IMG/VR virus record: IMGVR_UViG_3300045988_094612
Coordinates: 1-12,602 of that record
Origin: a virus
Length of the DNA stretch: 12,602 nucleotides
Direction: 5' to 3' (one strand)
Shown here: piece by piece, positions 1 through 12,602 of the stretch
Layout: the number at the start of each line of letters is the position of its first letter
How positions within the stretch are numbered: the first letter of the stretch is position 1
Notes under the pieces: generated by a model
The model's database searches: none
The model's input: the letters and a program-made list of their open reading frames with translations, nothing else
Told to the model about the DNA's origin: nothing
Made by a program: the position numbers and the translations under genes

Positions 1-37
1 AAATATCCAAACCCCCCCCCGCTGCGAGATGGGAATT
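1..37. repeat. Left inverted terminal repeat: AAATATCCAAA-C9-GCTGCGAGATGGGAATT
   Basis: Seen directly. The reverse complement of positions 12565..12602 is identical except for a C9 versus C10 homopolymer. The sequence is a GC island in an AT-rich genome and starts with the 5'-AAA reiteration typical of protein-primed sliding-back origins. Confidence 0.9.
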
Positions 38-109
38 AAATTTGAAAAATGTAAAGATTGTAAATATTATAATTATATACTTGACTTTTATTAAACTTTG
101 TGAACTAAA

Positions 110-180
110 CATAATACTAAATTACTACTAATATAGTACTAGTTAGCAATTACTAACTACTAAATTACTACTAATTTAAA
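110..180. repeat. Cluster of TACTA/ACTA iterated motifs in the non-coding left-end region; the 16-mer ACTAAATTACTACTAAT occurs twice
   Basis: Seen directly. TTACTACTAAT occurs at about 121..131 and 165..175, and TACTAG/TTACTAACTACTAA lie between them. No ORF in the region. The position between the left origin and the first promoter suggests protein-binding iterons. Confidence 0.5.
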
Positions 181-263
181 ACTTTTCTAAAAATATTAAA
201 ATTATTGTTGACAATTCTAAAAATATTATATATAATAAGCGTGTCAATAAAGAAAGCGAGGAA
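173..263 (+). repeat. Copy A of a perfect 91-bp direct repeat comprising promoter, leader and Shine-Dalgarno site
   Basis: Positions 173..263 are identical to 545..635 (offset 372 bp) as read from the sequence. Confidence 0.9.
208..236 (+). promoter_or_regulatory. Consensus sigma-A/sigma-70 promoter: TTGACA (208..213), 17-nt spacer, TATAAT (231..236)
   Basis: Exact match to the -35 and -10 consensus hexamers with the optimal 17-nt spacer. It is followed by the SD GAGGA (258..262) and the ATG at 269. Confidence 0.8.
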
Positions 264-268
264 AATTT

Positions 269-520
269 ATGACACAAAATCAACTAAAAACATTACAAGA
301 TTGTATGAAAGATTTAGAAAATGTAACACAAGAAGAACAAGGAATTTATTACAGCGATTTATTAAGCGTTTTAGTTACAAACGTTGAAAAGATTAGTTAT
401 ATTAAATTTACTAAAAAAGTTGAACAAGCTATAAGAGTATATATAATCAGTATTATAGCTAATAATGATATTGATTATCGTATTAAAAATGAATTGCTTG
501 TTACATTTTTAAAATTCTAA
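269..520 (+). CDS. Early small protein (83 aa), function unknown
   Basis: ORF with an SD (GAGGA) 6 nt upstream, driven by consensus promoter A. No recognisable motif. Confidence 0.7.
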   Translation: MTQNQLKTLQDCMKDLENVTQEEQGIYYSDLLSVLVTNVEKISYIKFTKKVEQAIRVYIISIIANNDIDYRIKNELLVTFLKF

Positions 521-544
521 ATAAAAATAGGTTAGAGGATTACA

Positions 545-635
545 AATTTAAAACTTTTCTAAAAATATTAAAATTATTGTTGACAATTCTAAAAATATTA
601 TATATAATAAGCGTGTCAATAAAGAAAGCGAGGAA
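545..635 (+). repeat. Copy B of the 91-bp promoter/SD direct repeat
   Basis: Identical to 173..263. Confidence 0.9.
580..608 (+). promoter_or_regulatory. Second consensus sigma-A promoter: TTGACA (580..585), 17-nt spacer, TATAAT (603..608)
   Basis: Lies within repeat copy B. It is followed by GAGGA (630..634) and the ATG at 642. Confidence 0.8.
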
Positions 636-641
636 TATTTT

Positions 642-710
642 ATGATAAGTGAAATTGATTTTAAGAAATTGCAAAAAGTAAAGCTAAATATGTACGTAGG
701 TATATTATGA
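642..710 (+). CDS. 22-codon leader ORF (MISEIDFKKLQKVKLNMYVGIL). Its TGA stop overlaps the ATG of the next gene (ATGA)
   Basis: It starts at the position equivalent to the ATG of ORF 269 relative to the duplicated SD. Its stop at 708..710 overlaps the ATG at 707..709. It may be a coupling or regulatory uORF. Confidence 0.35.
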   Translation: MISEIDFKKLQKVKLNMYVGIL

Positions 711-1039
711 CAATAAAATGCGCTGATTTTTGGTTAATTCGTGACAAATTTGATAAATCACCTAAGTTGTATTTAGACGTCGTGGGCGATTATTATTTAG
801 AACACGTCACAACCGCATATTACTTTGAAAACGATATCGCATATTATTACGACCGCCATATGGTTAAATGGCATTTAGTAGATTTAAGACTGCATCGCAT
901 TATATTAACGGCTAAAAATAAAGAAGCCGTTTTACAACTAGCGCACGCAACGCGCACAAGAATAAAAGAATATAGAAAACAAAATGAATACATATACATG
1001 TGGCAAGAAAGTCAAGAAATATTAAGGGGGTTACAATAG
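707..1039 (+). CDS. Early protein (110 aa), unknown function, locally GC-richer
   Basis: ORF with only a weak SD of its own (AGGT). The ATGA overlap with the leader ORF suggests translational coupling. Confidence 0.6.
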   Translation: MTIKCADFWLIRDKFDKSPKLYLDVVGDYYLEHVTTAYYFENDIAYYYDRHMVKWHLVDLRLHRIILTAKNKEAVLQLAHATRTRIKEYRKQNEYIYMWQESQEILRGLQ

Positions 1040-1040
1040 C

Positions 1041-1292
1041 ATGAAATATAATACATTAATTAAAGACATTAAAAAGCGTAAGTTATGGGATGTAATAATT
1101 TACATTGAAAACGCGGACAATCACGCAAGTATATTTTATTATTTGTATGACTTCGAAATTTATATTAAAGCACGTTATCATAATCAAGAAAGATTTGTAG
1201 ATTTTACACTAACTTATATTAGAAAAAGAAAAGAGCTTCATATTTGGGGACAAACTTCAAATTATAAAGAATGGAAGGACGTACAAATATGA
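1041..1292 (+). CDS. Early protein (83 aa), unknown function
   Basis: ORF preceded by AGGGGG. Its TGA stop overlaps the next ATG. Confidence 0.6.
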   Translation: MKYNTLIKDIKKRKLWDVIIYIENADNHASIFYYLYDFEIYIKARYHNQERFVDFTLTYIRKRKELHIWGQTSNYKEWKDVQI

Positions 1293-1519
1293 CCGATAAA
1301 GAAATAAAAGACTTAAAAGAAGATTTAGAATATTATCAACTTACATTTAGTATGGTTAGATATAAATTAAGTAATTATAAAGAAATAATTTTAGAACTAA
1401 ACGAACTTTTAAACGATTATTTAGATCAAAATGAAATTTTTAAAAATTTAAGCACAGATAACGCATATAATTTAAAAGAGATACTAGATGATCTAGATAT
1501 AGACTTTTACAATTATTAA
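1289..1519 (+). CDS. Small acidic protein (76 aa), paralogue 1 of a tandem pair
   Basis: The preferred start is ATG 1289 (SD GGAAGGA at 1274..1280, 8-nt spacing, ATGA overlap with the upstream stop) rather than the track start 1271. There are about 18 acidic versus 8 basic residues. It is a paralogue of 1555..1788. Confidence 0.6.
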   Translation: MTDKEIKDLKEDLEYYQLTFSMVRYKLSNYKEIILELNELLNDYLDQNEIFKNLSTDNAYNLKEILDDLDIDFYNY

Positions 1520-1554
1520 ATCGCTTCTCATTTAATAAGAAAGAGGTAAAACAA

Positions 1555-1788
1555 ATGTTAGAAAAAGAACTAAACGATATAAAAGAAAAATTAGAATTTT
1601 TAGAATTAATGAACGACTCAAAAGATTATAAAATAAAAAAATACGAATTTTTAATACTACAATTAAACGAACTTTTAATTAGTACCACTGATATGACGCA
1701 AATAGATATATTTAATGCTTTAGTTGGTGATAGTCCAAACACATTAAACAAAATATTAGATACGCTAGACTTAAATTTAAACTATTAA
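1555..1788 (+). CDS. Small acidic protein (77 aa), paralogue 2 of the tandem pair
   Basis: SD AAGAGG upstream. It shares a (K)E(I/L)xDxKExLEy N-terminus, a central ILxLNELL block and an ILDxLDxxxxNY C-terminus with 1289..1519. A 14-nt stretch AAACGAACTTTTAA and the 3' flank GCTTCTCATT are conserved at the DNA level. Confidence 0.65.
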   Translation: MLEKELNDIKEKLEFLELMNDSKDYKIKKYEFLILQLNELLISTTDMTQIDIFNALVGDSPNTLNKILDTLDLNLNY

Positions 1789-1845
1789 AATAGCTTCTCA
1801 TTCAAATTAACATATATTAAGAGAAAGAAAAGGAGGTTAATTATT

Positions 1846-2301
1846 ATGAGATTAAAACTTACTATGAAAATCAATACAAAGGAGGTGACCTATGAAGATG
1901 AAGGCAAAAAGAAAACTTTTAAAAGCTATTACACCTATTTAAAAGTGCCATTTGAAGCACCTGAGGGTAAAGATGTATCATTTAATTTACACTTTAGGCA
2001 AGATTGTGAGAACGCGTACGGTCGTGATTTAAACGGGGTTGTTACCGCTATTGTGGATGTACCTTGGTACGTTGTAGTTAAAGAGGGTAAAAATGAAGAT
2101 TACACTAAACAAGCTAAAATGATATTAAATGAAATATACGGCAAAAAAAGATTTGAAAACATTTGGCTTCATAAAATCTTAGATTATAAACCATTTGAAG
2201 AGAAAGAAGAAAACGACGACGATTTATTAGAATTTGACACGACAAAAAAGACTAAAGACGTTGAAAACATTAAAACAACCGACGACGATTTACCATTTTA
2301 A
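1846..2301 (+). CDS. Putative single-stranded DNA-binding protein or SSB mimic (151 aa) with a duplicated SSB C-terminal acidic tip (NDDDLLEF and TDDDLPF-COOH)
   Basis: Strong SD AAAGGAGG. The C-terminus ...TTDDDLPF matches the conserved Firmicute SSB C-terminal tip (E. coli SSB ends DDDIPF). An internal second copy is encoded by the direct repeat GACGACGATTTA at 2215 and 2281. The N-terminal part is beta-rich and could be an OB fold. An SSB is expected in a protein-primed replication module. Confidence 0.45.
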   Translation: MRLKLTMKINTKEVTYEDEGKKKTFKSYYTYLKVPFEAPEGKDVSFNLHFRQDCENAYGRDLNGVVTAIVDVPWYVVVKEGKNEDYTKQAKMILNEIYGKKRFENIWLHKILDYKPFEEKEENDDDLLEFDTTKKTKDVENIKTTDDDLPF

Positions 2302-2314
2302 GGAGTTAATAAAA

Positions 2315-2569
2315 ATGACAAAAGATATTAATATAACCGATTTTTTCACTTATTTTGTAGTCAATTACAAGCAAGACACTAAATATATGGTTTATTTACT
2401 AGTATATGGAGGTGGCAAACTATATATTAATAACGATTTGACATTTACATATGAACAACCAAATAAAATGAGTTTAATCGGTGTGCTTACCTTATTTGAA
2501 GAAATAATTCAATGCGATTGTGAGAATTTATTAGATATTCTTTACATAAAGGAGGTAATTAAAGACTAA
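2315..2569 (+). CDS. Early protein (84 aa), unknown function
   Basis: The preferred start is ATG 2315 (SD AAGGAG 2300..2305, 9-nt spacing) rather than 2234, which lies inside the previous gene. The stop overlaps the next ATG (TAATG). Confidence 0.55.
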   Translation: MTKDINITDFFTYFVVNYKQDTKYMVYLLVYGGGKLYINNDLTFTYEQPNKMSLIGVLTLFEEIIQCDCENLLDILYIKEVIKD

Positions 2570-3330
2570 TGCCTAAGAGACTTAAATTAAATTTATCTTA
2601 TAACGATTTAAATAAAATGTCTCTTACTGATTTAAAAAGCTATGCCATAAAGCTTAACAACGTTGCAAACTTGAGAGTAAGAAAGCTAAGAGAATTTGCT
2701 CCTTACTCTCCCGCTTTGTCTTCATACGAACGTAGCGAGTTAGGTACTTTTAGAATTGGTAAGGACGCGGATATTAATAGCTTACGCAAAAGCGTAGCTA
2801 GGGCAAAACACTTTCTTGAAATGGAGACGAGTACAGTTAGAGGTTCTATAAATGTTACATTACGCACTTTAAAACGCTTCGGTATAGAACCTCCTGATTT
2901 TAGCAAGAAAGAAAAAAAACCAAGAGGACGACCAAAAGGTTCAAAAAATAAAATTAAAACAAACGTACCTAAAGAGAAAAAACCAAGAGGACGACCAAAA
3001 GGTTCAAAAAATAAAAACGCATATAGTCAATATATTGAGACCGTAAAATGGTTATATTCAAAGAGAGAATTATTAAAAGAGTTCTTCGACTTGTACAATA
3101 GATATAAAGATTTATACCATGGTGGCGAACTACCTAGTGATACTATTAAAGTAGGTATGGATGTATTTTTGGACCTTAAAAATGATTTATTACAAAAAGT
3201 TGGCGACGAATGGGTAAATAGAGAAACGGGAGAAATAGTAGACCGAGACCAAATATTCTTTGATATTATGAATCAAAAAATAGAGAGAATGCACGACTAT
3301 ATTTATAGCTCATACAATCAATATAACTAA
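2569..3330 (+). CDS. Putative terminal protein (253 aa) carrying two tandem AT-hook motifs (KKPRGRPKGSKNK x2)
   Basis: It sits immediately upstream of, and is coupled to, the protein-primed DNA polymerase, as in phi29 gene 3 / gene 2. Its size is similar to phi29 TP (266 aa). By eye it resembles phi29 TP around YHGGELPSDTI (phi29 YAGGKPQGTI). RGRP is the AT-hook core. There is a Ser/Tyr-rich C-terminus. Confidence 0.5.
   Translation: MPKRLKLNLSYNDLNKMSLTDLKSYAIKLNNVANLRVRKLREFAPYSPALSSYERSELGTFRIGKDADINSLRKSVARAKHFLEMETSTVRGSINVTLRTLKRFGIEPPDFSKKEKKPRGRPKGSKNKIKTNVPKEKKPRGRPKGSKNKNAYSQYIETVKWLYSKRELLKEFFDLYNRYKDLYHGGELPSDTIKVGMDVFLDLKNDLLQKVGDEWVNRETGEIVDRDQIFFDIMNQKIERMHDYIYSSYNQYN
2913..3017 (+). 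repeat. Roughly 40-bp direct repeat, two copies 63 bp apart, encoding the two AT-hook units
   Basis: AAAAAACCAAGAGGACGACCAAAAGGTTCAAAAAATAAAA occurs at about 2915..2954 and 2977..3016. Confidence 0.85.
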
Positions 3331-3332
3331 TT

Positions 3333-5420
3333 ATGAAACAATACAATACGATTAAGGAGTGTTTAGCAAATGTAAAAAACTTTAAAACATACAAAAAAAG
3401 ACATAGAGATAAATACTTTAATAATCGTATTTGCTTTGACATTGAAGTATCTAGTTTCTATGTTGAAGGTATTGAAAAAGAACTAACTAAAAGAGCATGT
3501 TGTTACGCTTATATTTTTGGTATCGACGGCAATTATAAAATCGGTAGAAGCTTAGAAGAATTTATAAAAGACGTTGATTATCTTGAGTATGTTATGCATA
3601 AAAAAGACCCTGAAGCACATATAGTTATATGGATCCACAACTTAGCATATGAGTTTCAGTTTATTAGAAAGTATTTTGAGATACAGGAAATTTTAGCAAA
3701 CGACGAGAGAAAGATTATATACGCAGTTACTAAAAATAATATCGAGTTTAGATGTAGCTATATGTTGAGTGGATACTCTTTACGTAAAGTAGGAGAAAAT
3801 CTAAGACACCATACCGCTAAAAAAATGGTAGGAGATTTAGACTATTCCTTATTAAGAGGATCTACAACTCCACTAACTGAAAAAGAAATCGGATATATCA
3901 GGGAAGACTACGAGGTATTAGACAACTACATTGAAGAAGAACTCGAAACTTATCAATATATCTCACGATTACCATTAACTAAAACGGGTAAAGTAAGAAA
4001 GTTTTGTCGTAAAGTTTGCAATGAAAAAGGCGACTATAGAAAAAGATTTATTAAAAATCTTGTTATTAACGACGCTCAAGAATATATGCTTATGCGACGT
4101 GCTTTCATGGGAGGCTTTACACATGCTAACTCATTGGCTGTTAATAACTTAATTAGAGATGTAACATCTATCGACTTTACTAGCTCTTATCCCGCCGTTA
4201 TGGTGAGTGAGATGTTCCCTATGAGTCGAGGTCAAATAATAGAGATTAAATCTTTAGACCAAATAAAAGAATTATCTAAAAGAAACTGTCTTATATTTGA
4301 TATAGAGTTTTGGGATTTAGAAAGTACTTTTATTTATGAGTCTTATTTGTCAAGTTCACATGGTATCACTGAGGGAGCTACGACGATAAACAATGGTAGA
4401 ATAGTTATGACTAAATATTTAAAAACTACAATAACTAACATAGATTTAGATATAATAGAGAAAGTTTATAAATGGACTAAATGTAAAATAGGTTTGTGCT
4501 ACGTTTATAAAAAATGGTACCTCCCTACTACATTTGTAAAAAGTATCTTAATGTTATATAAAGACAAAACAACTTTAAAAGGTATTGACGACAAGATAGC
4601 CGAATACATGAATTCCAAAGAAATGTTAAACTCTTGTTATGGTATGACTGTTACTGATATTATTAAACCTGAGGTAGAATATGACGACGAGGAGGGGTGG
4701 CATACCGAAGAAATGACACTCGATAAACGAGGAGAATTAGTAGAAAAGTATAACAATCAGCGCTCAAGGTTTTTATTCTATCCATGGGGTGTTTTTATCA
4801 CAGCATATGCTAGGCGGAACCTGTGGTCAGGTATTTTAGAATTTGGAGAAGATTACTGCTATAGTGATACCGACTCGATCAAAGGAATTAATTATAAAAA
4901 ACATAAGAATTATGTTGATAAATACAACGATATATGTTATCATAAATTAGAGGTAGCAATGAGTTATCATAAACTTGATATATCATTGTGCGCTCCGACA
5001 ACTATAAAAGGAGAAAAGAAAATCATAGGCGTTTGGGATTATGACGGTCATTATGATATGTTCAAAACTTTAGGAGCTAAACGCTATATGGTATATAACA
5101 ACAAAGGATTATCATTAACTATATCAGGAGTTAATAAAACTAAAGCAGTACCTTATTTACTCAAAAAGTATAAAAACGATATACAACAAATATTTGATAG
5201 TTTTAGTAATGGATTTGAGGTACCCTCACCACATGCGGGCAAGCAAATTCTTACATATATTGACTATGAAACGAGCGGAGAGTTTATGGACTATTTAGGC
5301 AATAGACAAACGTATCATGAGTTAAGCTCAGTACATATGGAAGAGGGAAGCTATACATTGACAATGAGTGACGAGTACTTAAAATTCTTAGCGGAAGGAG
5401 TGAAGATAGATTATGTATAA
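3333..5420 (+). CDS. Protein-primed family-B DNA polymerase (695 aa)
   Basis: Contains Exo I FDIEV, Exo II HNLAYE (phi29 HNLKFD), Exo III YIRED, motif A DFTSSYPA (DxxSLYPS), motif B KEMLNSCYG (Kx3NSxYG), YPWGVFITAYAR (phi29 TPMGVFITAWAR), motif C YCYSDTDS (YxDTDS) and KRYMVY (KxY). The N-terminus YKIGRSLEEFI matches phi29 YKIGNSLDEFM. There is no SD; the start is 2 nt after the TP stop, suggesting coupling. Confidence 0.95.
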   Translation: MKQYNTIKECLANVKNFKTYKKRHRDKYFNNRICFDIEVSSFYVEGIEKELTKRACCYAYIFGIDGNYKIGRSLEEFIKDVDYLEYVMHKKDPEAHIVIWIHNLAYEFQFIRKYFEIQEILANDERKIIYAVTKNNIEFRCSYMLSGYSLRKVGENLRHHTAKKMVGDLDYSLLRGSTTPLTEKEIGYIREDYEVLDNYIEEELETYQYISRLPLTKTGKVRKFCRKVCNEKGDYRKRFIKNLVINDAQEYMLMRRAFMGGFTHANSLAVNNLIRDVTSIDFTSSYPAVMVSEMFPMSRGQIIEIKSLDQIKELSKRNCLIFDIEFWDLESTFIYESYLSSSHGITEGATTINNGRIVMTKYLKTTITNIDLDIIEKVYKWTKCKIGLCYVYKKWYLPTTFVKSILMLYKDKTTLKGIDDKIAEYMNSKEMLNSCYGMTVTDIIKPEVEYDDEEGWHTEEMTLDKRGELVEKYNNQRSRFLFYPWGVFITAYARRNLWSGILEFGEDYCYSDTDSIKGINYKKHKNYVDKYNDICYHKLEVAMSYHKLDISLCAPTTIKGEKKIIGVWDYDGHYDMFKTLGAKRYMVYNNKGLSLTISGVNKTKAVPYLLKKYKNDIQQIFDSFSNGFEVPSPHAGKQILTYIDYETSGEFMDYLGNRQTYHELSSVHMEEGSYTLTMSDEYLKFLAEGVKIDYV

Positions 5421-5495
5421 ATTTTACAAATTACAAACTATATTAGATAAAAAGTTTACTTTTATAAGAATGCCTAGAAGCTACGGGTATAGAGA

Positions 5496-6599
5496 ATGGC
5501 TAAAGAAAAAGAAGAACATTATAGATTAGATAAAATACTAGCACATAAAGCACAATATTATATGATTATCGGTGAGCGTTCTAATGGCAAGACTTATGCT
5601 ATCTTAGAACACTGCTTAAAGGAATATGTTAAAAGCGGATACAAGAAAGAATTTTGTATCTTGAGACGTTGGCAAGACGACTTTAAACCTAAAAACTCTA
5701 CGCAAATGTTCGCGGGTCATATTCAAAATGGTGTAATAACTAGACTCACAAAGGGAGAATTTAACTCGGTATCTTATTTAGGTGGTCGTTGGTATCTAGC
5801 ATTTGTCGACGAGCACGGAGCTACAACAAAGAAAATGCAAACACCTTTTTGCTATGGTTTTGCTCTTAATGACCAAGAACACATTAAATCAATCTCATTC
5901 CCTAATATTAAAAATATTTTCTTTGACGAGTTCTTATCAAGTAATTACTATCTACCTGATGAATTTGTTATCTTCATGAACGTATTATCAACTATTATAC
6001 GTTTACGTAACGACGTTACAATATTCATGGCAGGTAACACGATCAATCCTTATGCACCTTACTTTAATGAAATGGGATTAAAACATGTTAAGAACATGAA
6101 AAAAGGTGAGATTGAAGTATATACTTACGGTGATAGTGGGCTTAAAGTAGCAGTTGAGTTCTCGGACTATTACGGTAAAAAGAAGAGTAACATCTACTTT
6201 GCTTTTGACAATCCTAAACTAACTATGATTACAGGCGTTGGGGGTACTTGGGAAATAAACATCTACCCTCACTTGCCTTGTAAATATAAGCCAAAAGAAA
6301 TATTATTTACTTATTTTATTTTATTCGACAACGAGATATTCCAATGCGAAATCGTTTCAACAAACGATATGACGTTCACATACATACACCGTAAAACGGG
6401 AGAGTTGAAAGACAAGGGGGACTTAATATTCGACCTTGTACCAAATGGGAAGCCTAACTATGTTACTAACATCTATAGTTCTGGTAGTCCTGTAGTAAAT
6501 ATGATTTTATCCTTTTTCAAACTGAGTAAGGTTTTTTATCAAGACAATACGGTAGGTGAGTCAATAAGAAACTATTTACAAGTTTGTATTAGAGGCTAA
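5496..6599 (+). CDS. DNA packaging (encapsidation) ATPase, phi29 gp16-like (367 aa)
   Basis: Walker A GERSNGKTY and Walker B IFFDEF. The block IKNIFFDEFLSSNYYLPDEF...AGNTINPYAPYFNEMGL resembles phi29 gp16 TIVFDEFIREKDNSNYIPNE...LSNAVSVVNPYFLFF. Confidence 0.9.
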   Translation: MAKEKEEHYRLDKILAHKAQYYMIIGERSNGKTYAILEHCLKEYVKSGYKKEFCILRRWQDDFKPKNSTQMFAGHIQNGVITRLTKGEFNSVSYLGGRWYLAFVDEHGATTKKMQTPFCYGFALNDQEHIKSISFPNIKNIFFDEFLSSNYYLPDEFVIFMNVLSTIIRLRNDVTIFMAGNTINPYAPYFNEMGLKHVKNMKKGEIEVYTYGDSGLKVAVEFSDYYGKKKSNIYFAFDNPKLTMITGVGGTWEINIYPHLPCKYKPKEILFTYFILFDNEIFQCEIVSTNDMTFTYIHRKTGELKDKGDLIFDLVPNGKPNYVTNIYSSGSPVVNMILSFFKLSKVFYQDNTVGESIRNYLQVCIRG

Positions 6600-6658
6600 A
6601 ATAGAAATGGAGGTATATCAAAATAAATACCACTTTAGAAAATATTGTAGATAGCTCC

Positions 6659-6898
6659 TTGATAGTCTTAACAGGAACTGTGGGAATACAACAAATCGAG
6701 TCTATTATAGGAATTATTAGTGTATCTTTATCAGTTCTATGGATTTTGTTCAAGTTGGCCTTAAAAGTGTACCAAGCTCTTAAGAATAAAGACTATAGCA
6801 ACTTAGAGAACAACATTAATAAGACTAAAGAAGAACTCGACAAGATTAAAGAAGACTTAGAAAGCAGGAGAGAAAATGGCGGACAAGATACCGAATAG
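6659..6898 (+). CDS. Small membrane protein (79 aa): an N-terminal transmembrane helix plus a charged coiled-coil tail. Candidate holin.
   Basis: The hydrophobic segment IIGIISVSLSVLWILFKLAL is followed by a K/E-rich C-terminus. The ORF has no in-frame ATG, so the start is presumably TTG 6659 (no SD) or GTG 6680. Its stop overlaps the connector gene start. Confidence 0.4.
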   Translation: MIVLTGTVGIQQIESIIGIISVSLSVLWILFKLALKVYQALKNKDYSNLENNINKTKEELDKIKEDLESRRENGGQDTE

Positions 6899-7889
6899 GC
6901 AAGATTGGAGTTATGAAAAATTATTAGGTTGTAATAGAAACCCATTGAAAGACAAAGAGCGCTTAGTATGTCAACACAAAAGTTACATGTTATCACGTCT
7001 TAATCAGTTGTTTGAATGGGACGGCTTACCAGAGACAATACCACAAAAAGAGTTTGAATGGATATTATTAATGCAGGGCAAAGCAACTATTGCCGACGTA
7101 CCTAACAAAGGCTTATATGCTTTTCAATCCAACTTAGGAGGTATCTTGAACCCTTACTACTTACCTACTCAGTCAATTGTAGTCAATCCTTACTTACCAT
7201 TTAACAAGGTACTTGAGGTTGATAAAGATTGTGTTGTAATTCGTAACACTTCAACATTTACTCCTATTAATGATATGTTAGATTTATACGCTAACATGCT
7301 AGCCGAGATTGATATATCTTTAAGAATTGCTACCGTTAATAGTCGTATTAGTTCTCTTATATCCGTAGGAGACGAAGCGACCAAAGATAGTGCTACGAAG
7401 TTCTTAGAAGATATAGAAAAAGGCAAGCTAGGAGTTATAGCTACTAACAAATTCATGGAGAGTCTTAAAGGTGGTCTTAATGCAATTCAATATGCAGGTA
7501 CTATTAGTAACATTCAGGACCTTATAGAATTAAGACAGTACATCTTAGCTACGTGGTTTAACCAACTTGGCTTAAACGCTAACTATAATATGAAACGTGA
7601 AGCTATCAACGAGAGCGAGGCTGATTTAAACGAAGAGGCTTTAATGCCATTGATAGACGATATGTTGCAATGTAGACAAGAGGGAGCCGAGAAAGTTAAT
7701 GCTATGTTTGGTACTAATCTTAGTGTTAAACTCAACTCTTCATGGAAGCTCCAAAGAAAAGAAATAGAAACATCTATGGAACTTGCCGAGAAAGAATTAA
7801 ATACCGAAGAAAACGAAGAAACACAAGAAGAGGGAGAAAGTAAGGAAGAACCAACCGAAGACAAGGATAAAGAAAATGATAACGATTAA
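6876..7889 (+). CDS. Head-tail connector / portal protein, phi29 gp10-like (337 aa) with an acidic C-terminal tail
   Basis: LSRLNQLFEWDGLPETIP matches phi29 connector LAYQLFEWENLPPTI. The size is similar (phi29 309 aa). SD AGGAGA upstream. Confidence 0.8.
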   Translation: MADKIPNRQDWSYEKLLGCNRNPLKDKERLVCQHKSYMLSRLNQLFEWDGLPETIPQKEFEWILLMQGKATIADVPNKGLYAFQSNLGGILNPYYLPTQSIVVNPYLPFNKVLEVDKDCVVIRNTSTFTPINDMLDLYANMLAEIDISLRIATVNSRISSLISVGDEATKDSATKFLEDIEKGKLGVIATNKFMESLKGGLNAIQYAGTISNIQDLIELRQYILATWFNQLGLNANYNMKREAINESEADLNEEALMPLIDDMLQCRQEGAEKVNAMFGTNLSVKLNSSWKLQRKEIETSMELAEKELNTEENEETQEEGESKEEPTEDKDKENDND

Positions 7890-8652
7890 AGATTATTTTG
7901 AACCATTAATGATGGACGATACCGAGGAAACAACCGGAATATTTAGAGCACTTGAAGAGGTAGTAAAAAGTCTAACTACACCTGACGAGATTTTAACAAA
8001 AATCTTTGATGGTAAAGGTAGTGTACTTGATATGGACTATGTCTATACACACGCATACTCTAAATGGTGTGCTTTTATACTAGAGAGATTAACTGAGTTT
8101 GTTAAAACTCTAATGCCATCTATTAGTGACAATAGAGCAAAAGTACTTACATTAGGAACACAAATCGCACCGTTATTATTAACTCGTTTCTCCGAGATTT
8201 GGAAGAAAAAGTATGTAGCTATTACCGCCGATTACACTCCAACAAACGACTACAAAGAGAATGAGAAAGTTGATTACACTTCCCACGGTGTTGATACTCC
8301 TCAAACTACTACAACGAGTAAAACGAGTACTGACACTACTCAGTCAACTAGTGTAACTCAAAATGCTAATACATATGCTTTTGATAGTATAAGTGAGACT
8401 CCTACCGCTCTCAACACAGGTGACCAAAGTGTCAATAGTACGGGTGCTCCTGATAAAAACTATACTGAGACTACCACAGGTGGAACCAATACAAGTGATG
8501 TCAACAGCACTAACACAATCACTAGGGAGGGAAAACACGGCTCAACCAACTATAGTGTATTAATTGAAAACGAGCTTAAACTACGTGAATACGATTTTTA
8601 TCAAGAGATGTTCAAAGATATTGATAGTATATTAACGTTATCAATTTATTAG
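7876..8652 (+). CDS. Structural protein (258 aa): a helical N-terminal half and a Thr/Ser/Asn-rich low-complexity C-terminal half. Possible lower-collar or head-fibre analogue.
   Basis: ORF coupled to the connector gene (start lies within the connector's last codons). About 110 residues are greater than 45% T/S/N. There is no recognisable motif; the assignment rests on position only. Confidence 0.4.
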   Translation: MITIKDYFEPLMMDDTEETTGIFRALEEVVKSLTTPDEILTKIFDGKGSVLDMDYVYTHAYSKWCAFILERLTEFVKTLMPSISDNRAKVLTLGTQIAPLLLTRFSEIWKKKYVAITADYTPTNDYKENEKVDYTSHGVDTPQTTTTSKTSTDTTQSTSVTQNANTYAFDSISETPTALNTGDQSVNSTGAPDKNYTETTTGGTNTSDVNSTNTITREGKHGSTNYSVLIENELKLREYDFYQEMFKDIDSILTLSIY

Positions 8653-8668
8653 AAGGGAGGACACAAAA

Positions 8669-8932
8669 TTGTACGTAGGAGGATATTTATTAATTAGCCT
8701 ACCTTTTGAAGCTAAGGCAGGCACACACAAAGTAGATGGTATCTACAATAGACTTGAAAGTAACTTATACAAAGCAACTAGGGTTAATGGGTTATACAAC
8801 ACAGTTGGACAAATTAGTGATTTTTATGTAACTTTTGTATTAACCACTGGTAATTATGTAGCAAAAGTTAATAGTACCGTAGGAATTACTACTATTACAA
8901 TTAAACCAACTGACGAGGTAGTATTTGCATAA
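8669..8932 (+). CDS. Small beta-rich structural protein (87 aa), TTG start
   Basis: Strong SD AAGGGAGG (8653..8660) lies 8 nt upstream of TTG 8669. The ORF has no in-frame ATG before residue 1. Confidence 0.5.
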   Translation: MYVGGYLLISLPFEAKAGTHKVDGIYNRLESNLYKATRVNGLYNTVGQISDFYVTFVLTTGNYVAKVNSTVGITTITIKPTDEVVFA

Positions 8933-9237
8933 TGGGTGGAATAATTGAAATAACAATACCTTATGAATTATGGGATAACACTAATACGTACCCTATACAA
9001 TTACCAAAAGGTACATATAAGTCTTTAATTGAAACACCTAGCAAAGTTTTATATATTCATGTTGTAGAATCTAAGACAAAGGATGTAGATTACACAGGTA
9101 GAGAATATATCTTAAACACTTTAGAAGCAATTACAACACTTGAAACAAATGAAAATTCAATAGATATTAGTATCGGCTTTAACAATATCGCTAACGAGTT
9201 TTTTATCACATCGGACGATACTATAAGCTATAAATAA
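8932..9237 (+). CDS. Small structural protein (101 aa), unknown function
   Basis: TAATG overlap with the previous gene. The composition is beta-rich. It sits immediately upstream of the major capsid gene but does not look like a helical scaffold. Confidence 0.5.
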   Translation: MGGIIEITIPYELWDNTNTYPIQLPKGTYKSLIETPSKVLYIHVVESKTKDVDYTGREYILNTLEAITTLETNENSIDISIGFNNIANEFFITSDDTISYK

Positions 9238-9265
9238 ATTTGAAAAGGAGGAATATATATTTTAA

Positions 9266-10411
9266 ATGACAGTAAAACAAATTTATGAATTAGTAAACGC
9301 AAGTACAAAACAAGTATTAGGAGAAACTGCTATCCTTACTGAAGATTTATCCAATGTCATTGATATTGGTACTGAAATCTTTAACGCTAACGCAGTAGAT
9401 AACTATGTCAAAACTTTAGTTGATAGAATTGGTAAAGTTATCTTTGTTAATAGACCCTATAGTGGTTCTATCCCTTCAGTCTTAATGGACTCATGGGAGT
9501 ACGGTTCAGTCACTGAAAAAATTCAAATGGATTTACCTGAAGCCGAAGTCAACGAGTCATGGGAATTACAAGATAGAGCTACTTATGACCAAAACTACTT
9601 CTATCAACCAAAAATCTCTGTTAAGTTCTTTAATAAGATGGTAACTTTTGAAGTTCCAATGTCAATCACTGAAAGACAAGTTCAAGAAAGCTTTACCTCA
9701 GCTCAAGCTTTAGGAAGCTTTGTTGGCATGATTTGGACAATGATTGAAAACTCCATGACCGTTAAACTTGATAGTTTAATCTTAATGACTATCAATAATA
9801 TGATTAGCTTAACTGACTTAGCTAACGGTGGCGGAGAAGCTCAACACGTCCATTTATTAACTGAATATAAAGCTCTCAATCCTGACTTTACAAAAACAGG
9901 TGAAGCTGCAATGACTGATTTAGGTTTCTTAAAATATGCCGCTTTTAGAATTAAATTAGTAGCAGGTCGAATGACTCAATATTCGGATGTCTTTAACGCT
10001 GAAAAGAAATCAAGACACACACCTAAGGATTTAATGCACATTGTATTATTATCCGACTTTAAAAATGCAGCGGATGTATATTTACAATCTGATACATTCC
10101 ACAATGAACTATCAGCTTTACCAAATAGTGAAACAGTTCAATATTGGCAAGGTTCAGGTAATGGTAGTGACGCATTTACATTCGCTAATACATCCAAGAT
10201 TAATATCAAAAACTCCAATGGCAATACATATACTAAGTCTAATATCATTGGCGTTATCTTTGATAGAGACGCATTAGGTGTTACTAAGAAAAATACACGT
10301 ATTCGCTCACACGTTGTTGATAAAGCTGAGTTCTACAACTATTGGTATAAAGCTGATGTAGGCTACTTCAACGACTTAAGCGAAAACTTCGTTTGCTTCT
10401 TAATTGATTAG
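9266..10411 (+). CDS. Major capsid protein, phi29 gp8-like (381 aa)
   Basis: YVKTLVDRIGKVIFVNR matches phi29 gp8 ITSLVDRIGLVVIRQ (recalled). The size and position fit, and the gene is followed by a strong terminator. SD GGAGGA upstream (13-nt spacing). Confidence 0.7.
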   Translation: MTVKQIYELVNASTKQVLGETAILTEDLSNVIDIGTEIFNANAVDNYVKTLVDRIGKVIFVNRPYSGSIPSVLMDSWEYGSVTEKIQMDLPEAEVNESWELQDRATYDQNYFYQPKISVKFFNKMVTFEVPMSITERQVQESFTSAQALGSFVGMIWTMIENSMTVKLDSLILMTINNMISLTDLANGGGEAQHVHLLTEYKALNPDFTKTGEAAMTDLGFLKYAAFRIKLVAGRMTQYSDVFNAEKKSRHTPKDLMHIVLLSDFKNAADVYLQSDTFHNELSALPNSETVQYWQGSGNGSDAFTFANTSKINIKNSNGNTYTKSNIIGVIFDRDALGVTKKNTRIRSHVVDKAEFYNYWYKADVGYFNDLSENFVCFLID

Positions 10412-10419
10412 TTGAAATT

Positions 10420-10450
10420 AGGGGGTATAGAAATATACCTCCTTTTCTTT
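10420..10450 (+). terminator. Rho-independent terminator: 10-bp stem AGGGGGTATA/TATACCTCCT with a GAAA tetraloop and a TTTCTTT tail
   Basis: Seen directly. The stem is 10420..10429 pairing with 10434..10443 (one G-U pair), the loop is GAAA, and a T-rich run follows. It lies just after the capsid gene stop. Confidence 0.7.
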
Positions 10451-10468
10451 AAATAAAAAGGAGAAAAT

Positions 10469-10690
10469 ATGAAATTAAAAGAAGTCTTAAAATTAATTAA
10501 CAATGAATTTATTAATTATACAATATACCGTGATAAAAAAGTTGTTGCTCACTTTTCTACAAGATACCAAAAAGAAGTAGAAGAGATAACAAGAAGATAC
10601 GGACACTATAACGTTACAAATATTGGAGCTTTCATAACTTGTGACTATGAATGTGTTGTGTCATTAACACTTGAGGAAGTATTGTTATGA
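10469..10690 (+). CDS. Small protein (73 aa), unknown function
   Basis: Good SD AAAAAGGAGA 7 nt upstream. ATGA overlap with the downstream tail gene. Confidence 0.55.
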   Translation: MKLKEVLKLINNEFINYTIYRDKKVVAHFSTRYQKEVEEITRRYGHYNVTNIGAFITCDYECVVSLTLEEVLL

Positions 10691-12519
10691 AGATAACTTT
10701 ATACCAAAATGTTAGTGAACATAACCAAATGGACAAGGATTTAACTAAAGTTAAAGATATTGACGGTAAGTTTAAACAATCCACTAATATTATGAGTCCT
10801 GTATTAGTATTGAGTTATGCAACACTTCCCGATTTTAATTATATATATATTGAAGAATTAGCTCGATATTATTTTGTTGACAGTATCACAAGTATTAACG
10901 AAGGGATATGGCAAATCAATTGTAGTGAGGATGTATTAGAGACTTACGGGATCGGGATATTAAATCTTACGGCATATGTAACTAGAAATGAAAATGAATA
11001 TAATGATTATATTATAGATAAATATCTTATAAAAACAGCTAAAAAACTATATGATATTATTACACCATTAGAAAATGAGACCGACGGAAGAAATTTATTT
11101 TTAAACAATAACACCTTTAATATAGATTTTACACATGATGGCGCCCCTGCGGAGCTATCTAGTGTAACGGACTCTTTTTGTTATACTATCTCAACTAGCA
11201 ATATGACTGGAGGCCCAATTTTATTTGACCCTGAAACAGGAGTACCTACAAGCTTAGATTATATGCAAGCTAGTATAGATAATAATCAATATTCCAAATA
11301 TGGTGTTACTCAATGGGGTAAACAATTTTATCACGATGGCTTTAATAAAGTATGGGCTTTAAATAATAATAACTTACAAGCTATAGGTTCTTTACTCAAA
11401 GCAAAAGTTACAGATGTAGAAAGTGGAAGAATGTATGAAAATCTAGGTCAAATGATAAATGGATTAAAAGTATATCCATTTTCTATACCTGAGTATTTTT
11501 ATCTATGTGGTATAAGTGTAGATAAACTACCACAAGGTAATTATGCGGATTACATGAAAAAAAAACAAGGAGATAACAAAAACATACAACCTATTACAAT
11601 AGGTAACACCGCAATTGAAAATCTAGTCACTTCCGAAAAAAACACTATAGGCCAATCAGCTAACTTATATGGTGCTCCACAATTAACAGGTTGGTTATTA
11701 CCGCACCAAATAATGAGTTGCAAACTAGCTACCTTTGGTTTTGATAATGACGCTATATTATACAATAATTATCTTGATTATGAACCTTATACACAATTAC
11801 AACTTTATGTTCCGTTCTTCGGTTATATAACTATTCCTACAAATGTAGTAATAGGTAACAAAATATATTTATATTTATCGGTAGATTTTATAACGGGACT
11901 AGGAACATTATATATCACAGTAGATATAAATGGTAAAGAAACTTTAATTAATACTCAAAATAGTAAAATTGCTTATGACCTCGCTTATGGTTCTACAAAT
12001 ATAAATGAATTAGAAAGACTAACCGAATTAACCAAATCTAGGGATGCGAACAGGACAATAAGTAACATAGTAGGGAATGCATTAAGTGTTCTAACAGCTA
12101 TACCAATTGGTACGGTAAATCCAATCGCAGGAGTTACAATGGGTTTAAGTGCTTTAGTCAATACCGCACGAGGAAGTTTTAGCGATATAACTACTTATTT
12201 TAATGATGTAGACTCCAGCGCTACGACTCCTTTAAATGGTAATACCGTTTCGGGGGGAGGATCCCAAAATGGGGCAAGCAATTTGATATCACCGCGTGGG
12301 ATATTTATACTAAGAGAAAGAGTAGAAGAATATAGACCAACTTCTAATTATGCTAAATTCTTAGGTAGACCGCTAGAGATACAAAAGAATATATCTAAAT
12401 TACATGGATTTACTAAAGTGGGTAGTGTTCGTATAGAGGGAGATGATTTTGCCAAAGCTACCGAGCAAGAAAAACAAACAATAGAACAAACCTTAAAAAA
12501 TGGTTTTATACTCAGGTGA
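10687..12519 (+). CDS. Tail knob / distal tail tube protein, phi29 gp9-like (610 aa)
   Basis: SPRGIFILRERVEEYR matches phi29 gp9 GYRGVYVIKKQLKAEYR (recalled). The Gly/Ala-rich hydrophobic segment NALSVLTAIPIGTVNPIAGVTMGLSALVNTA is analogous to the gp9 membrane-active loop. The size (phi29 599 aa) and the C-terminal pattern are similar. Confidence 0.65.
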   Translation: MKITLYQNVSEHNQMDKDLTKVKDIDGKFKQSTNIMSPVLVLSYATLPDFNYIYIEELARYYFVDSITSINEGIWQINCSEDVLETYGIGILNLTAYVTRNENEYNDYIIDKYLIKTAKKLYDIITPLENETDGRNLFLNNNTFNIDFTHDGAPAELSSVTDSFCYTISTSNMTGGPILFDPETGVPTSLDYMQASIDNNQYSKYGVTQWGKQFYHDGFNKVWALNNNNLQAIGSLLKAKVTDVESGRMYENLGQMINGLKVYPFSIPEYFYLCGISVDKLPQGNYADYMKKKQGDNKNIQPITIGNTAIENLVTSEKNTIGQSANLYGAPQLTGWLLPHQIMSCKLATFGFDNDAILYNNYLDYEPYTQLQLYVPFFGYITIPTNVVIGNKIYLYLSVDFITGLGTLYITVDINGKETLINTQNSKIAYDLAYGSTNINELERLTELTKSRDANRTISNIVGNALSVLTAIPIGTVNPIAGVTMGLSALVNTARGSFSDITTYFNDVDSSATTPLNGNTVSGGGSQNGASNLISPRGIFILRERVEEYRPTSNYAKFLGRPLEIQKNISKLHGFTKVGSVRIEGDDFAKATEQEKQTIEQTLKNGFILR

Positions 12520-12526
12520 TTATAGG

Positions 12527-12549
12527 CTCATGGGATTTACTCTCATGGG
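12527..12549. repeat. Direct repeat CTCATGGG (12527..12534 and 12542..12549) between the last gene and the right ITR
   Basis: Seen directly. GC-richer than the surroundings. Possible origin-proximal binding site. Confidence 0.5.
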
Positions 12550-12564
12550 CTTTTCAATTGTAAT

Positions 12565-12602
12565 AAATTCCCATCTCGCAGCGGGGGGGGGTTTGGATAT
12601 TT
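12565..12602. repeat. Right inverted terminal repeat: AATTCCCATCTCGCAGC-G10-TTTGGATATTT
   Basis: Reverse complement of 1..37, with one extra base in the homopolymer. Confidence 0.9.

Follow-up and report, generated by a model that had tools for sequence, protein, structure and literature searches.

A 12.6-kb phi29-like phage genome, probably complete and protein-primed, bounded by exact 37-bp inverted terminal repeats

Among phages whose DNA replication is primed by a protein, PRD1 combines such priming with stepwise sliding-back (PMC4974454), and the terminal protein (TP) of phi29 primes from Ser232, which lies in a loop (PMC4974454). A further group, here called Astrithrvirus-like, comprises the Salmonella phages astrithr, Astrid and assan, Acinetobacter phage Phanie, Pectobacterium phage DU_PP_III, Enterobacter phage Entb_47 and Vibrio phage K58 g2; the open reading frame (ORF) upstream of the polymerase gene in Astrithrvirus has been treated as the counterpart of phi29 p3, the terminal protein (PMC11476376). 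These phages were the best protein matches among cultured phages (amino acid identities of 41–44% for the polymerase and 47–52% for the major capsid protein) to the DNA analysed here, the 12,602-nt IMG/VR virus record IMGVR_UViG_3300045988_094612, positions 1 to 12,602; we refer to this whole stretch as the window. We conclude with high confidence that the window is the complete, unit-length linear double-stranded DNA genome of an uncultured human-gut phi29-like podophage, distantly related to the Astrithrvirus group (phages of ~11.5 kb), whose inverted terminal repeats (ITRs) are both the physical ends and the replication origins, and which most likely replicates by protein priming, a mechanism that we draw by analogy.

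The first 37 nt of the window (AAATATCCAAACCCCCCCCCGCTGCGAGATGGGAATT) equal the reverse complement of 12566–12602 at 37 of 37 bases, and the match breaks off abruptly at base 38; from the base composition of the window, an exact terminal inverted match of 37 nt has a chance of about 1e–24. The left ITR (1–37) consists of AAA (1–3), an AT-rich spacer (4–11), nine C (12–20) and the 17-mer GCTGCGAGATGGGAATT (21–37), while the right ITR (12566–12602) shows the corresponding nine G at 12583–12591 and a terminal TTT at 12600–12602; both are presumed replication origins. No run of seven or more C or G occurs in the window outside the two arms, and GC content, 31.5% for the window, is 54% in the ITR and 53% in its 17-mer. 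There is no direct terminal redundancy. An earlier sequence-only reading had described a self-contained linear protein-primed replicon bounded by a 37-bp inverted repeat, and that repeat is indeed exact and sits at both extremities; two details of the description needed correction. The right arm starts at 12566, not at 12565, and the supposed difference between nine and ten C in the two arms is a miscount, because 38 bases (12565–12602) had been counted at the right end; both arms carry nine. The C9 tract and the CGAGATGG box are candidate origin elements, where the tract or the whole 17-mer may have a role.

Close relatives of 87–100% nucleotide identity were gathered from IMG/VR, from JGI and GenBank metagenomes, from ENA and from Logan. 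Besides the window, four contigs (L001, L004, L063 and L098) extend as far as the outermost base and share one homologous stop position, with right ends that begin 5'-AAAT; the 5'-AAA start reported earlier for both termini of the window was confirmed and is thus kept in these four further contigs. The right terminus of L001, AAATATCCAAA-C9-GCTGCGAGATGGGAATT, is identical to that of the window and may come from the same sample, whereas those of L063 (AAATATGCAAA-C8-AGCGAGATGGGAATT), L098 (AAATATAAATA-C7-TGCGAGATGGGAATT) and L004 (AAATGTACATA-C8-TACGAGATGGAATT) have diverged; with point substitutions in the terminal 11 nt, the shared end is therefore not an adapter. Across the window clade the AAAT start, a tract of C7–C10 and a CGAGATG core are conserved, and the rest varies, with small indels. 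The proposal that the GC-rich 17-mer is a specific recognition element could thus hold at most for this core and not for the remainder, which differs between strains.

A further seven contigs (L005, L007, L008, L009, L048, L049 and L075) end 4–23 nt short, within the repeat, the left ends of L005 and L048 breaking off inside the left ITR. Sequence running through the ends had been named as the finding that would speak against genuine termini: in the assemblies, 0 of ~18 related contigs run on into other DNA beyond an end, and a right end joined to a left one was not seen in any. More distant relatives from rabbit gut, L089 and L090 (major capsid protein 51% identical), have ITRs of at least 77 bp that differ at four positions, each change being mirrored at both ends; such mirroring is concerted evolution, as expected of functional ITRs. 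In L043, whose TP candidate is 40% identical to that of the window, the right end reads ATTCCAA-CCCCACCCC-TCGGAAGCGGAATAT. In wider searches, the exact ITR 17-mer had no match in IMG/VR, a looser terminal pattern returned mostly unrelated matches, and a search for further left ends with a subterminal anchor returned one already known contig only.

The layout of these ends recurs in cultured phages. For the terminal C-run we compared window 1–20 with the termini of L086, L079, L096, L099 and L085. The window begins AAATATCCAAA-C9 (ITR 37 bp), DU_PP_III GGGATATCCG-C10 (ITR 219 bp), Phanie GGGTTATCCG-C6-TCC (ITR 171 bp) and K58 g2 GGGCTATCCT-C6-T-C5; in all four, a short spacer separates a homotrinucleotide at the very end from a C tract that starts at position 11–12, a layout that the deposited ends of Astrid and astrithr do not have. 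In PRD1 (GGGGATACGTG-CCCCTCCCC; ITR 110 bp) the C-rich run occupies 12–20, as in the window, and in phi29 (ITR 6 bp) the left end only shows a comparable run (AAAGTAAG-CCCCCACCC). The phi29 end that the sequence-only reading had given was right for the left end, which reads AAAGTAAGCCCCCACCC, the right end having no C tract, and its C-rich tract near the window's ends was borne out, with a position that is conserved and common to cultured relatives and PRD1. Counted from the end, the C-rich run starts at 11–12 nt in the window clade, DU_PP_III, Phanie, K58 g2 and PRD1, and at 9 nt at the phi29 left end, a positional likeness that spans two viral realms. We also considered TATCC as a conserved terminal motif, since it is common to the window and the Gammaproteobacteria phages, and rejected it on finding TATGC, TATAA and TGTAC in sister strains.

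The ORF at 3333–5420 encodes a family-B DNA polymerase of 695 amino acids (aa) that belongs to the organellar/viral, protein-primed type (PF03175 at 44 bits, above the cut-off of 25.8; PHROG 1907, E = 5.6e–62), without a Shine-Dalgarno sequence of its own. In alignment with the phi29 and PRD1 polymerases, invariant residues cover Exo I–III (D36/E38; N103; Y188/D192), motif A (D281/S284/Y286/P287), motif B (K429/N433/G437), motif C (Y510/D512/T513/D514/S515) and KxY (K583/Y585). Its Exo II motif reads HNLAYEF, with E107 in place of the catalytic Asp66 of phi29; this Glu for Asp is common to the window and the Astrithrvirus-like polymerases (astrithr and Phanie) and is found in that of L043 too, and it is absent from the phi29 and PRD1 polymerases. 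Of the coupled terminal-protein and polymerase genes that had been proposed, the polymerase is thereby confirmed, and the terminal-protein gene keeps the standing of a candidate.

That candidate, a 253-aa ORF at 2569–3330 that ends 2 nt before the polymerase gene, is putatively identified as the terminal protein from its position and its homologues. It has an N-terminal domain (~aa 20–110; motifs ANxR, SPA and TSTVxG) homologous to the ORF directly 5' of the polymerase gene in Phanie, astrithr and DU_PP_III (for the equivalent ORF of Phanie and astrithr, hhalign probability 89–92% with E ~1e–6, and blastp E = 5e–6), and the order of TP gene, then polymerase gene, is that of PRD1, astrithr and phi29. 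In its AlphaFold2 (AF2) model the C-terminal part forms a helical bundle, with an invariant Pro189-Ser190 (nt 3133–3138) in a loop between two helices; because this loop resembles the position of the loop that holds the phi29 priming residue, Ser190 is a candidate priming residue by analogy. Between the two parts lie two tandem AT-hooks, PRGRPKGSKNK, at nt 2908–2953 (aa 114–129) and nt 2971–3016 (aa 135–150). The motif is HMGA-type: human HMG-I(Y) has the same 11-mer as its second AT-hook (PDB 2EZD, E = 4.8e–4), and this AT-hook peptide was the sole match of the TP-candidate profile among PDB sequences. Both the window clade and the L043 clade have the hooks, and the homologues in astrithr, Phanie, DU_PP_III and the rabbit-gut relatives lack them. 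Basic, DNA-binding, nucleoid-targeting segments recur in phage TPs (PMC4974454), and the hooks would fit a TP without proving one, their role being predicted from the motif; a literature search found no paper linking an AT-hook with a terminal protein and protein-primed replication.

The remaining core genes form a phi29-type virion and packaging module. All credible ORFs lie on the + strand and cover 93% of the window. Downstream of the polymerase gene follow a phi29 gp16-type DNA packaging ATPase (5496–6599; PF05894, E = 4e–12; PHROG 2150), a small hydrophobic membrane-type protein of 79 aa (6659–6898; PHROG 1009, E = 1e–6; 72% identical to its L043 homologue) whose gene keeps its position between those for ATPase and connector, the upper collar/connector, or portal (6876–7889; PF05352, E = 2e–17; PHROG 2038), a phi29-type major capsid protein (9266–10411; PF25622, E = 2e–49; PHROG 2006) and a 610-aa tail (tail-knob) protein (10687–12519), in which local blastp shows ~100 aa of homology to the small tail-knob ORF that astrithr, DU_PP_III and Phanie carry; the name tail knob is taken from PMC11476376. 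The window ends 83 nt past this last ORF. Because the window has genes for a capsid, a connector and a packaging ATPase, the choice that had been left between phage and plasmid falls to phage.

Compared with the Astrithrvirus-like phages, the window has the same core gene order (TP-like ORF, polymerase, ATPase, small membrane protein, connector, capsid, tail knob) and proteins that are 35–52% identical, while no cultured phage matched at the nucleotide level (megablast against 50,697 phage records). The genome is similar in size (12.6 against 10.4–11.9 kb), with a GC content of 31.5% against their 32–40%; its ends are AAA rather than GGG, with an ITR of 37 rather than 84–219 bp. All its genes lie on one strand, with an early block of ~2.3 kb 5' of the TP candidate, whereas the Astrithrvirus-like phages carry a reverse-strand gene cluster at the right end and an endolysin gene after the tail knob, and the window has no detectable lysin. 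Its tail knob is a single ORF where theirs is split into two genes, and its TP candidate differs from their ORF in the two AT-hooks and in a different, longer C-terminal half. Likeness to phi29 is more remote: a protein-primed polymerase 23% identical over 502 aa, 5'-AAA ends, a TP-sized ORF directly 5' of the polymerase gene, and an ATPase, connector and capsid that belong to the phi29 gp16, gp10 and capsid Pfam families. In contrast, phi29 has a 19.3-kb genome with opposite-strand early genes at each end, an ITR of only 6 bp and a p3 to which the TP candidate has no detectable homology. It also encodes a pRNA, and none was found in the window, where Rfam families including pRNA gave no match at E up to 1 and the left non-coding region (38–210) folds no better than shuffles (z = –0.56). 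PRD1 resembles the window in a reiterated terminal base (GGGG) and in a TP gene 3 nt upstream of the polymerase gene, and differs in belonging to another viral realm, with a double-jelly-roll capsid, an internal membrane and a polymerase only 22% identical. Gut and sewage have also yielded phi29-like genomes of 12–13 kb, namely the Amedibacillus phages AD70P2 and AD70P3 (Guelinviridae) and uncultured contigs from human faeces labelled 'Bacteriophage sp.', among them MT836125; these are more distant from the window than the Astrithrvirus group (polymerase 33–34%, major capsid protein 30–38% identical), and their terminal sequences are unrelated to those of the window, AD70P2 having a 55-bp ITR without terminal homotrinucleotide or C tract. 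On these sequence comparisons the window falls outside Salasmaviridae, given no pRNA and no p3 homology, and outside the genus Astrithrvirus, given no nucleotide similarity, another gene layout, a fused tail knob and AAA ends. By the convention of the International Committee on Taxonomy of Viruses, the genus threshold is ~70% intergenomic similarity.

A linear protein-primed replicon, as the sequence-only reading had it, is supported by the exact ITR, the gene content, the concordant contig stops and the terminal layout shared with cultured relatives, and protein priming from the ITR ends is, by analogy with phi29, Nf, GA-1, Cp-1 and PRD1, the most likely mode of replication. On that model a heterodimer of the polymerase (3333–5420) and the putative TP (2569–3330) would bind each end, and dAMP would be joined to a hydroxyl side chain of the TP opposite the second or third T of the 3'-TTTA template end (3'-TTTATAGG); the complex would then slide back one or two positions and so recover the terminal base. 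Initiation takes place at the second T in phi29 and GA-1, the third in Nf and Cp-1 and the fourth C in PRD1, and sliding-back requires the terminal nucleotide to be reiterated over at least 2 nt (PMC4974454; PMC3480470); both ends of the window, with AAA, have such a reiteration. Strand-displacement synthesis would proceed from both ends, the displaced strand perhaps being coated by the 151-aa protein with a DDDLPF tail (1846–2301), and one TP would remain covalently bound at each 5' end; both the covalent linkage and the initiating position are here modelled on the better-known phages. The two ends would stay identical because one machinery must recognise both. Finally, the gp16-type ATPase would drive the unit-length, protein-capped DNA through the phi29-type connector and so fill the phi29-type capsid.

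Several results weigh against one part or another of this interpretation. The TP candidate resembles no established terminal protein: a profile of the window clade aligned to the TPs of phi29, Nf, GA-1, Karezi and PumA2 reached an hhalign probability of ~1%, the candidate against PRD1 P8 reached 0.1%, none of seven members of its family matched a Pfam or PHROG terminal-protein family, and the AF2 model (predicted local distance difference test score, pLDDT, 72) gave generic helical-bundle matches only. In L048 the partial ITR copies (1–15 against the right end) differ at two adjacent positions (TGCGAGATGAGAATT and TGCGAGATGGAAATT), a difference that could be a genuine imperfection of the ITR or the result of assembling co-occurring strains into a chimera. 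Pfam and PHROGs recognised no endolysin, holin family, tail fibre, spike or receptor-binding protein in the window. With neither endolysin nor receptor-binding protein recognised, the word 'self-contained' in the sequence-only reading holds for the replicon and may not extend to the phage. Metagenome assemblies, moreover, can lose a few terminal bases, so that the true end could lie slightly further out.

The last two of these points each open onto a different account of the window. It is unlikely, though the foremost alternative we weighed, that the ends are genuine and protein-primed but belong to a podophage of satellite type, in which adsorption or lysis depends on a helper phage. Such dependence is known from the relative Phanie, which relies on a helper myophage in Acinetobacter (PMC11476376), and it would agree with the undetected endolysin, tail fibre and spike. 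Yet the tail knob of the window is a single 610-aa protein, unlike the split two-gene arrangement of the Phanie group; failure of profile hidden Markov models to detect a lysin in a divergent phage is weak negative evidence, and lysis could come from the membrane protein at 6659–6898 or from other ORFs without an assignment. That the contig is merely near-complete, with a few terminal nucleotides missing from a real ITR that is slightly longer and perhaps does not start with AAA, we consider quite improbable. Protein-capped ends are under-represented in libraries, many contigs of relatives do fall short by the 4–23 nt noted above, and the deposited astrithr ITR measures 18 bp against 84 bp in the near-identical Astrid; but here five contigs with four different terminal sequences share one stop base, and the C tract starts at 12 in the window against 11–12 in DU_PP_III, Phanie, K58 g2 and PRD1, an offset that therefore leaves room for at most ~1 missing base.

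The two remaining accounts deny that the repeats are phage termini at all. One would make the ITR an artefact of assembly or library preparation (an adapter remnant, a chimeric fold-back read or homopolymer tailing) on a genome that is truly circular or circularly permuted. Artefacts do occur among metagenomic contigs with ITRs (PMC9610469), and a C9 homopolymer is error-prone, most contigs of relatives breaking in or near it. This is nonetheless very improbable, given that four contigs of other assemblies end at the same base with diverged termini, a variation that adapters would not show, that the terminal layout recurs in cultured relatives whose virion DNA was sequenced, that neither a direct terminal redundancy nor a joined right-left contig was seen, and that the ITRs of L089 and L090 co-vary at both ends. 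The other would see a casposon-, pipolin- or polinton-type element, self-synthesising, integrated or transposable and bounded by terminal inverted repeats, that the window boundaries cut from a host chromosome; such elements also pair a family-B polymerase with repeats of this kind. We find it barely credible: no integrase, Cas1 or transposase was found in any window ORF (Pfam/PHROGs), a full phi29-type virion and packaging module is present, no related contig has host flanks, and matches in bacterial collections are all whole phage-sized contigs. We accordingly retain the complete linear phage genome as the reading to be preferred.

Outside the core module, the genes are mostly small. The first, an 83-aa ORF at 269–520 without a family match, is also the first gene in relatives; it is followed by early ORFs of 110 aa (707–1039) and 83 aa (1041–1292) and by two paralogues of 82 aa (1271–1519) and 77 aa (1555–1788), which share the direct repeats D5, D7 and D10, each at a spacing of 266 nt. 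Across strains, which have genomes of 12.3 to 13.2 kb, early ORFs differ in number and identity. The 151-aa ORF at 1846–2301, which has a homologue in L043 and no Pfam or PHROG match, ends in TTDDDLPF. Bacterial single-stranded-DNA-binding proteins (SSBs) have an acidic C-terminal tip, ...DDDIPF in Escherichia coli. Because its acidic DDDLPF tail resembles this tip, the ORF is a candidate phage SSB and might engage host SSB-interacting proteins. An 84-aa ORF (2315–2569) precedes the TP candidate, and an 84-aa gene is called at the equivalent position in relatives. In the structural module, a Thr/Ser-rich ORF of 258 aa (7876–8652) has homologues in L043 and L089 only and no family match in Pfam or PHROGs; its position suggests a lower collar protein. 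The 87-aa ORF at 8669–8932 is followed by a strain-variable one of 101 aa (8932–9237), the length of which differs among relatives, and a 73-aa ORF (10469–10690) lies between the capsid and tail-knob genes. No tRNAs were found in the window.

Two copies of a 100-nt direct repeat, at 169–268 and 541–640 on the + strand, are 98% identical, and each holds a perfect sigma-70 consensus promoter (TTGACA-17-TATAAT, 12 of 12 positions), at 208–236 and 580–608, respectively. The first copy, which also contains the ribosome-binding site of the first gene, reaches just short of the start codon at 269, and the second stops 67 nt 5' of the ORF at 707; with the promoter in both copies, a strong early promoter unit has therefore been duplicated. 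The repeats are probably why many assemblies of relatives break near 169–640. At the right end of the window, 13 nt before the ITR, is a strong terminator-type RNA hairpin followed by UUUUC (12524–12552, + strand; –15.7 kcal/mol, z = –4.06, with 0 of 200 shuffles as stable). It consists of two copies of CUCAUGGG, paired with each other via G-U pairs and a palindromic CAUG core, and strains conserve it to a high degree. A second terminator-like hairpin lies 3' of the capsid gene (10420–10443, + strand). Judged from these elements, transcription appears to run left to right from the promoters at 208–236 and 580–608 and to end at the hairpin at 12524–12552. In the left non-coding region the motif TACTAAATTACTACTAAT occurs twice (115–140 and 158–183) around a small palindrome (ACTAGTTAG..CTAACTA) and is conserved among strains; an early regulator or an origin-organising protein may bind this repeated motif (115–183).

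The window clade consists of uncultured genomes of ~12.3–13.2 kb, at least one contig of which (L048, PRJEB1220) is expressly of human-gut metagenomic origin. TGA serves as a stop codon, which excludes alternative code 4, and ribosome-binding sites are strong (AAGGAGG); from these two features the host is probably a standard-code, Firmicutes-like bacterium. In bacterial genome collections the matches (L089–L093) were only whole phage-sized contigs in mutually inconsistent metagenome-assembled genomes, labelled Oscillospiraceae, Muribaculaceae, Staphylococcaceae and Methanobrevibacter; these placements look like binning contaminants rather than host evidence.

To a specialist the window is a phi29-like phage in the broad sense, working like phi29 or PRD1, new but unsurprising, with modest points of interest in the AT-hook TP candidate and in a fixed-offset C tract common to protein-primed phages. 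A bolder proposal, which we regard as doubtful, is that it represents a separate gut phi29-like lineage of genus or family level, that its priming protein gained two HMGA-type AT-hooks which tether TP and polymerase to AT-rich subterminal DNA or to the host nucleoid, and that the C-run at 11/12–20 is a functional origin element across two realms (the window clade, the Astrithrvirus-like phages and PRD1, with something similar at the phi29 left end); if that were true, origin recognition would rest on a common spacing rule and not on lineage-specific sequence. For the study of metagenomes, the window shows that genuine genome ends can be recognised on a contig by a short ITR, and it offers an in-silico check of such ends in the common stop base of diverged strains, the co-variation of the two ends and a layout shared with cultured relatives. 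AAA against GGG ends on a similar layout, the fixed-offset C tract and the tandem-AT-hook TP candidate are leads for work on protein-primed replication, and compact sets of TP, polymerase and origin like that of the window are candidates for orthogonal replication systems. A human-gut lineage with a single-strand gene layout is thereby added to the smallest known tailed phages, with the Gram-negative Astrithrvirus group on one side of it and the Gram-positive phi29-like phages on the other.

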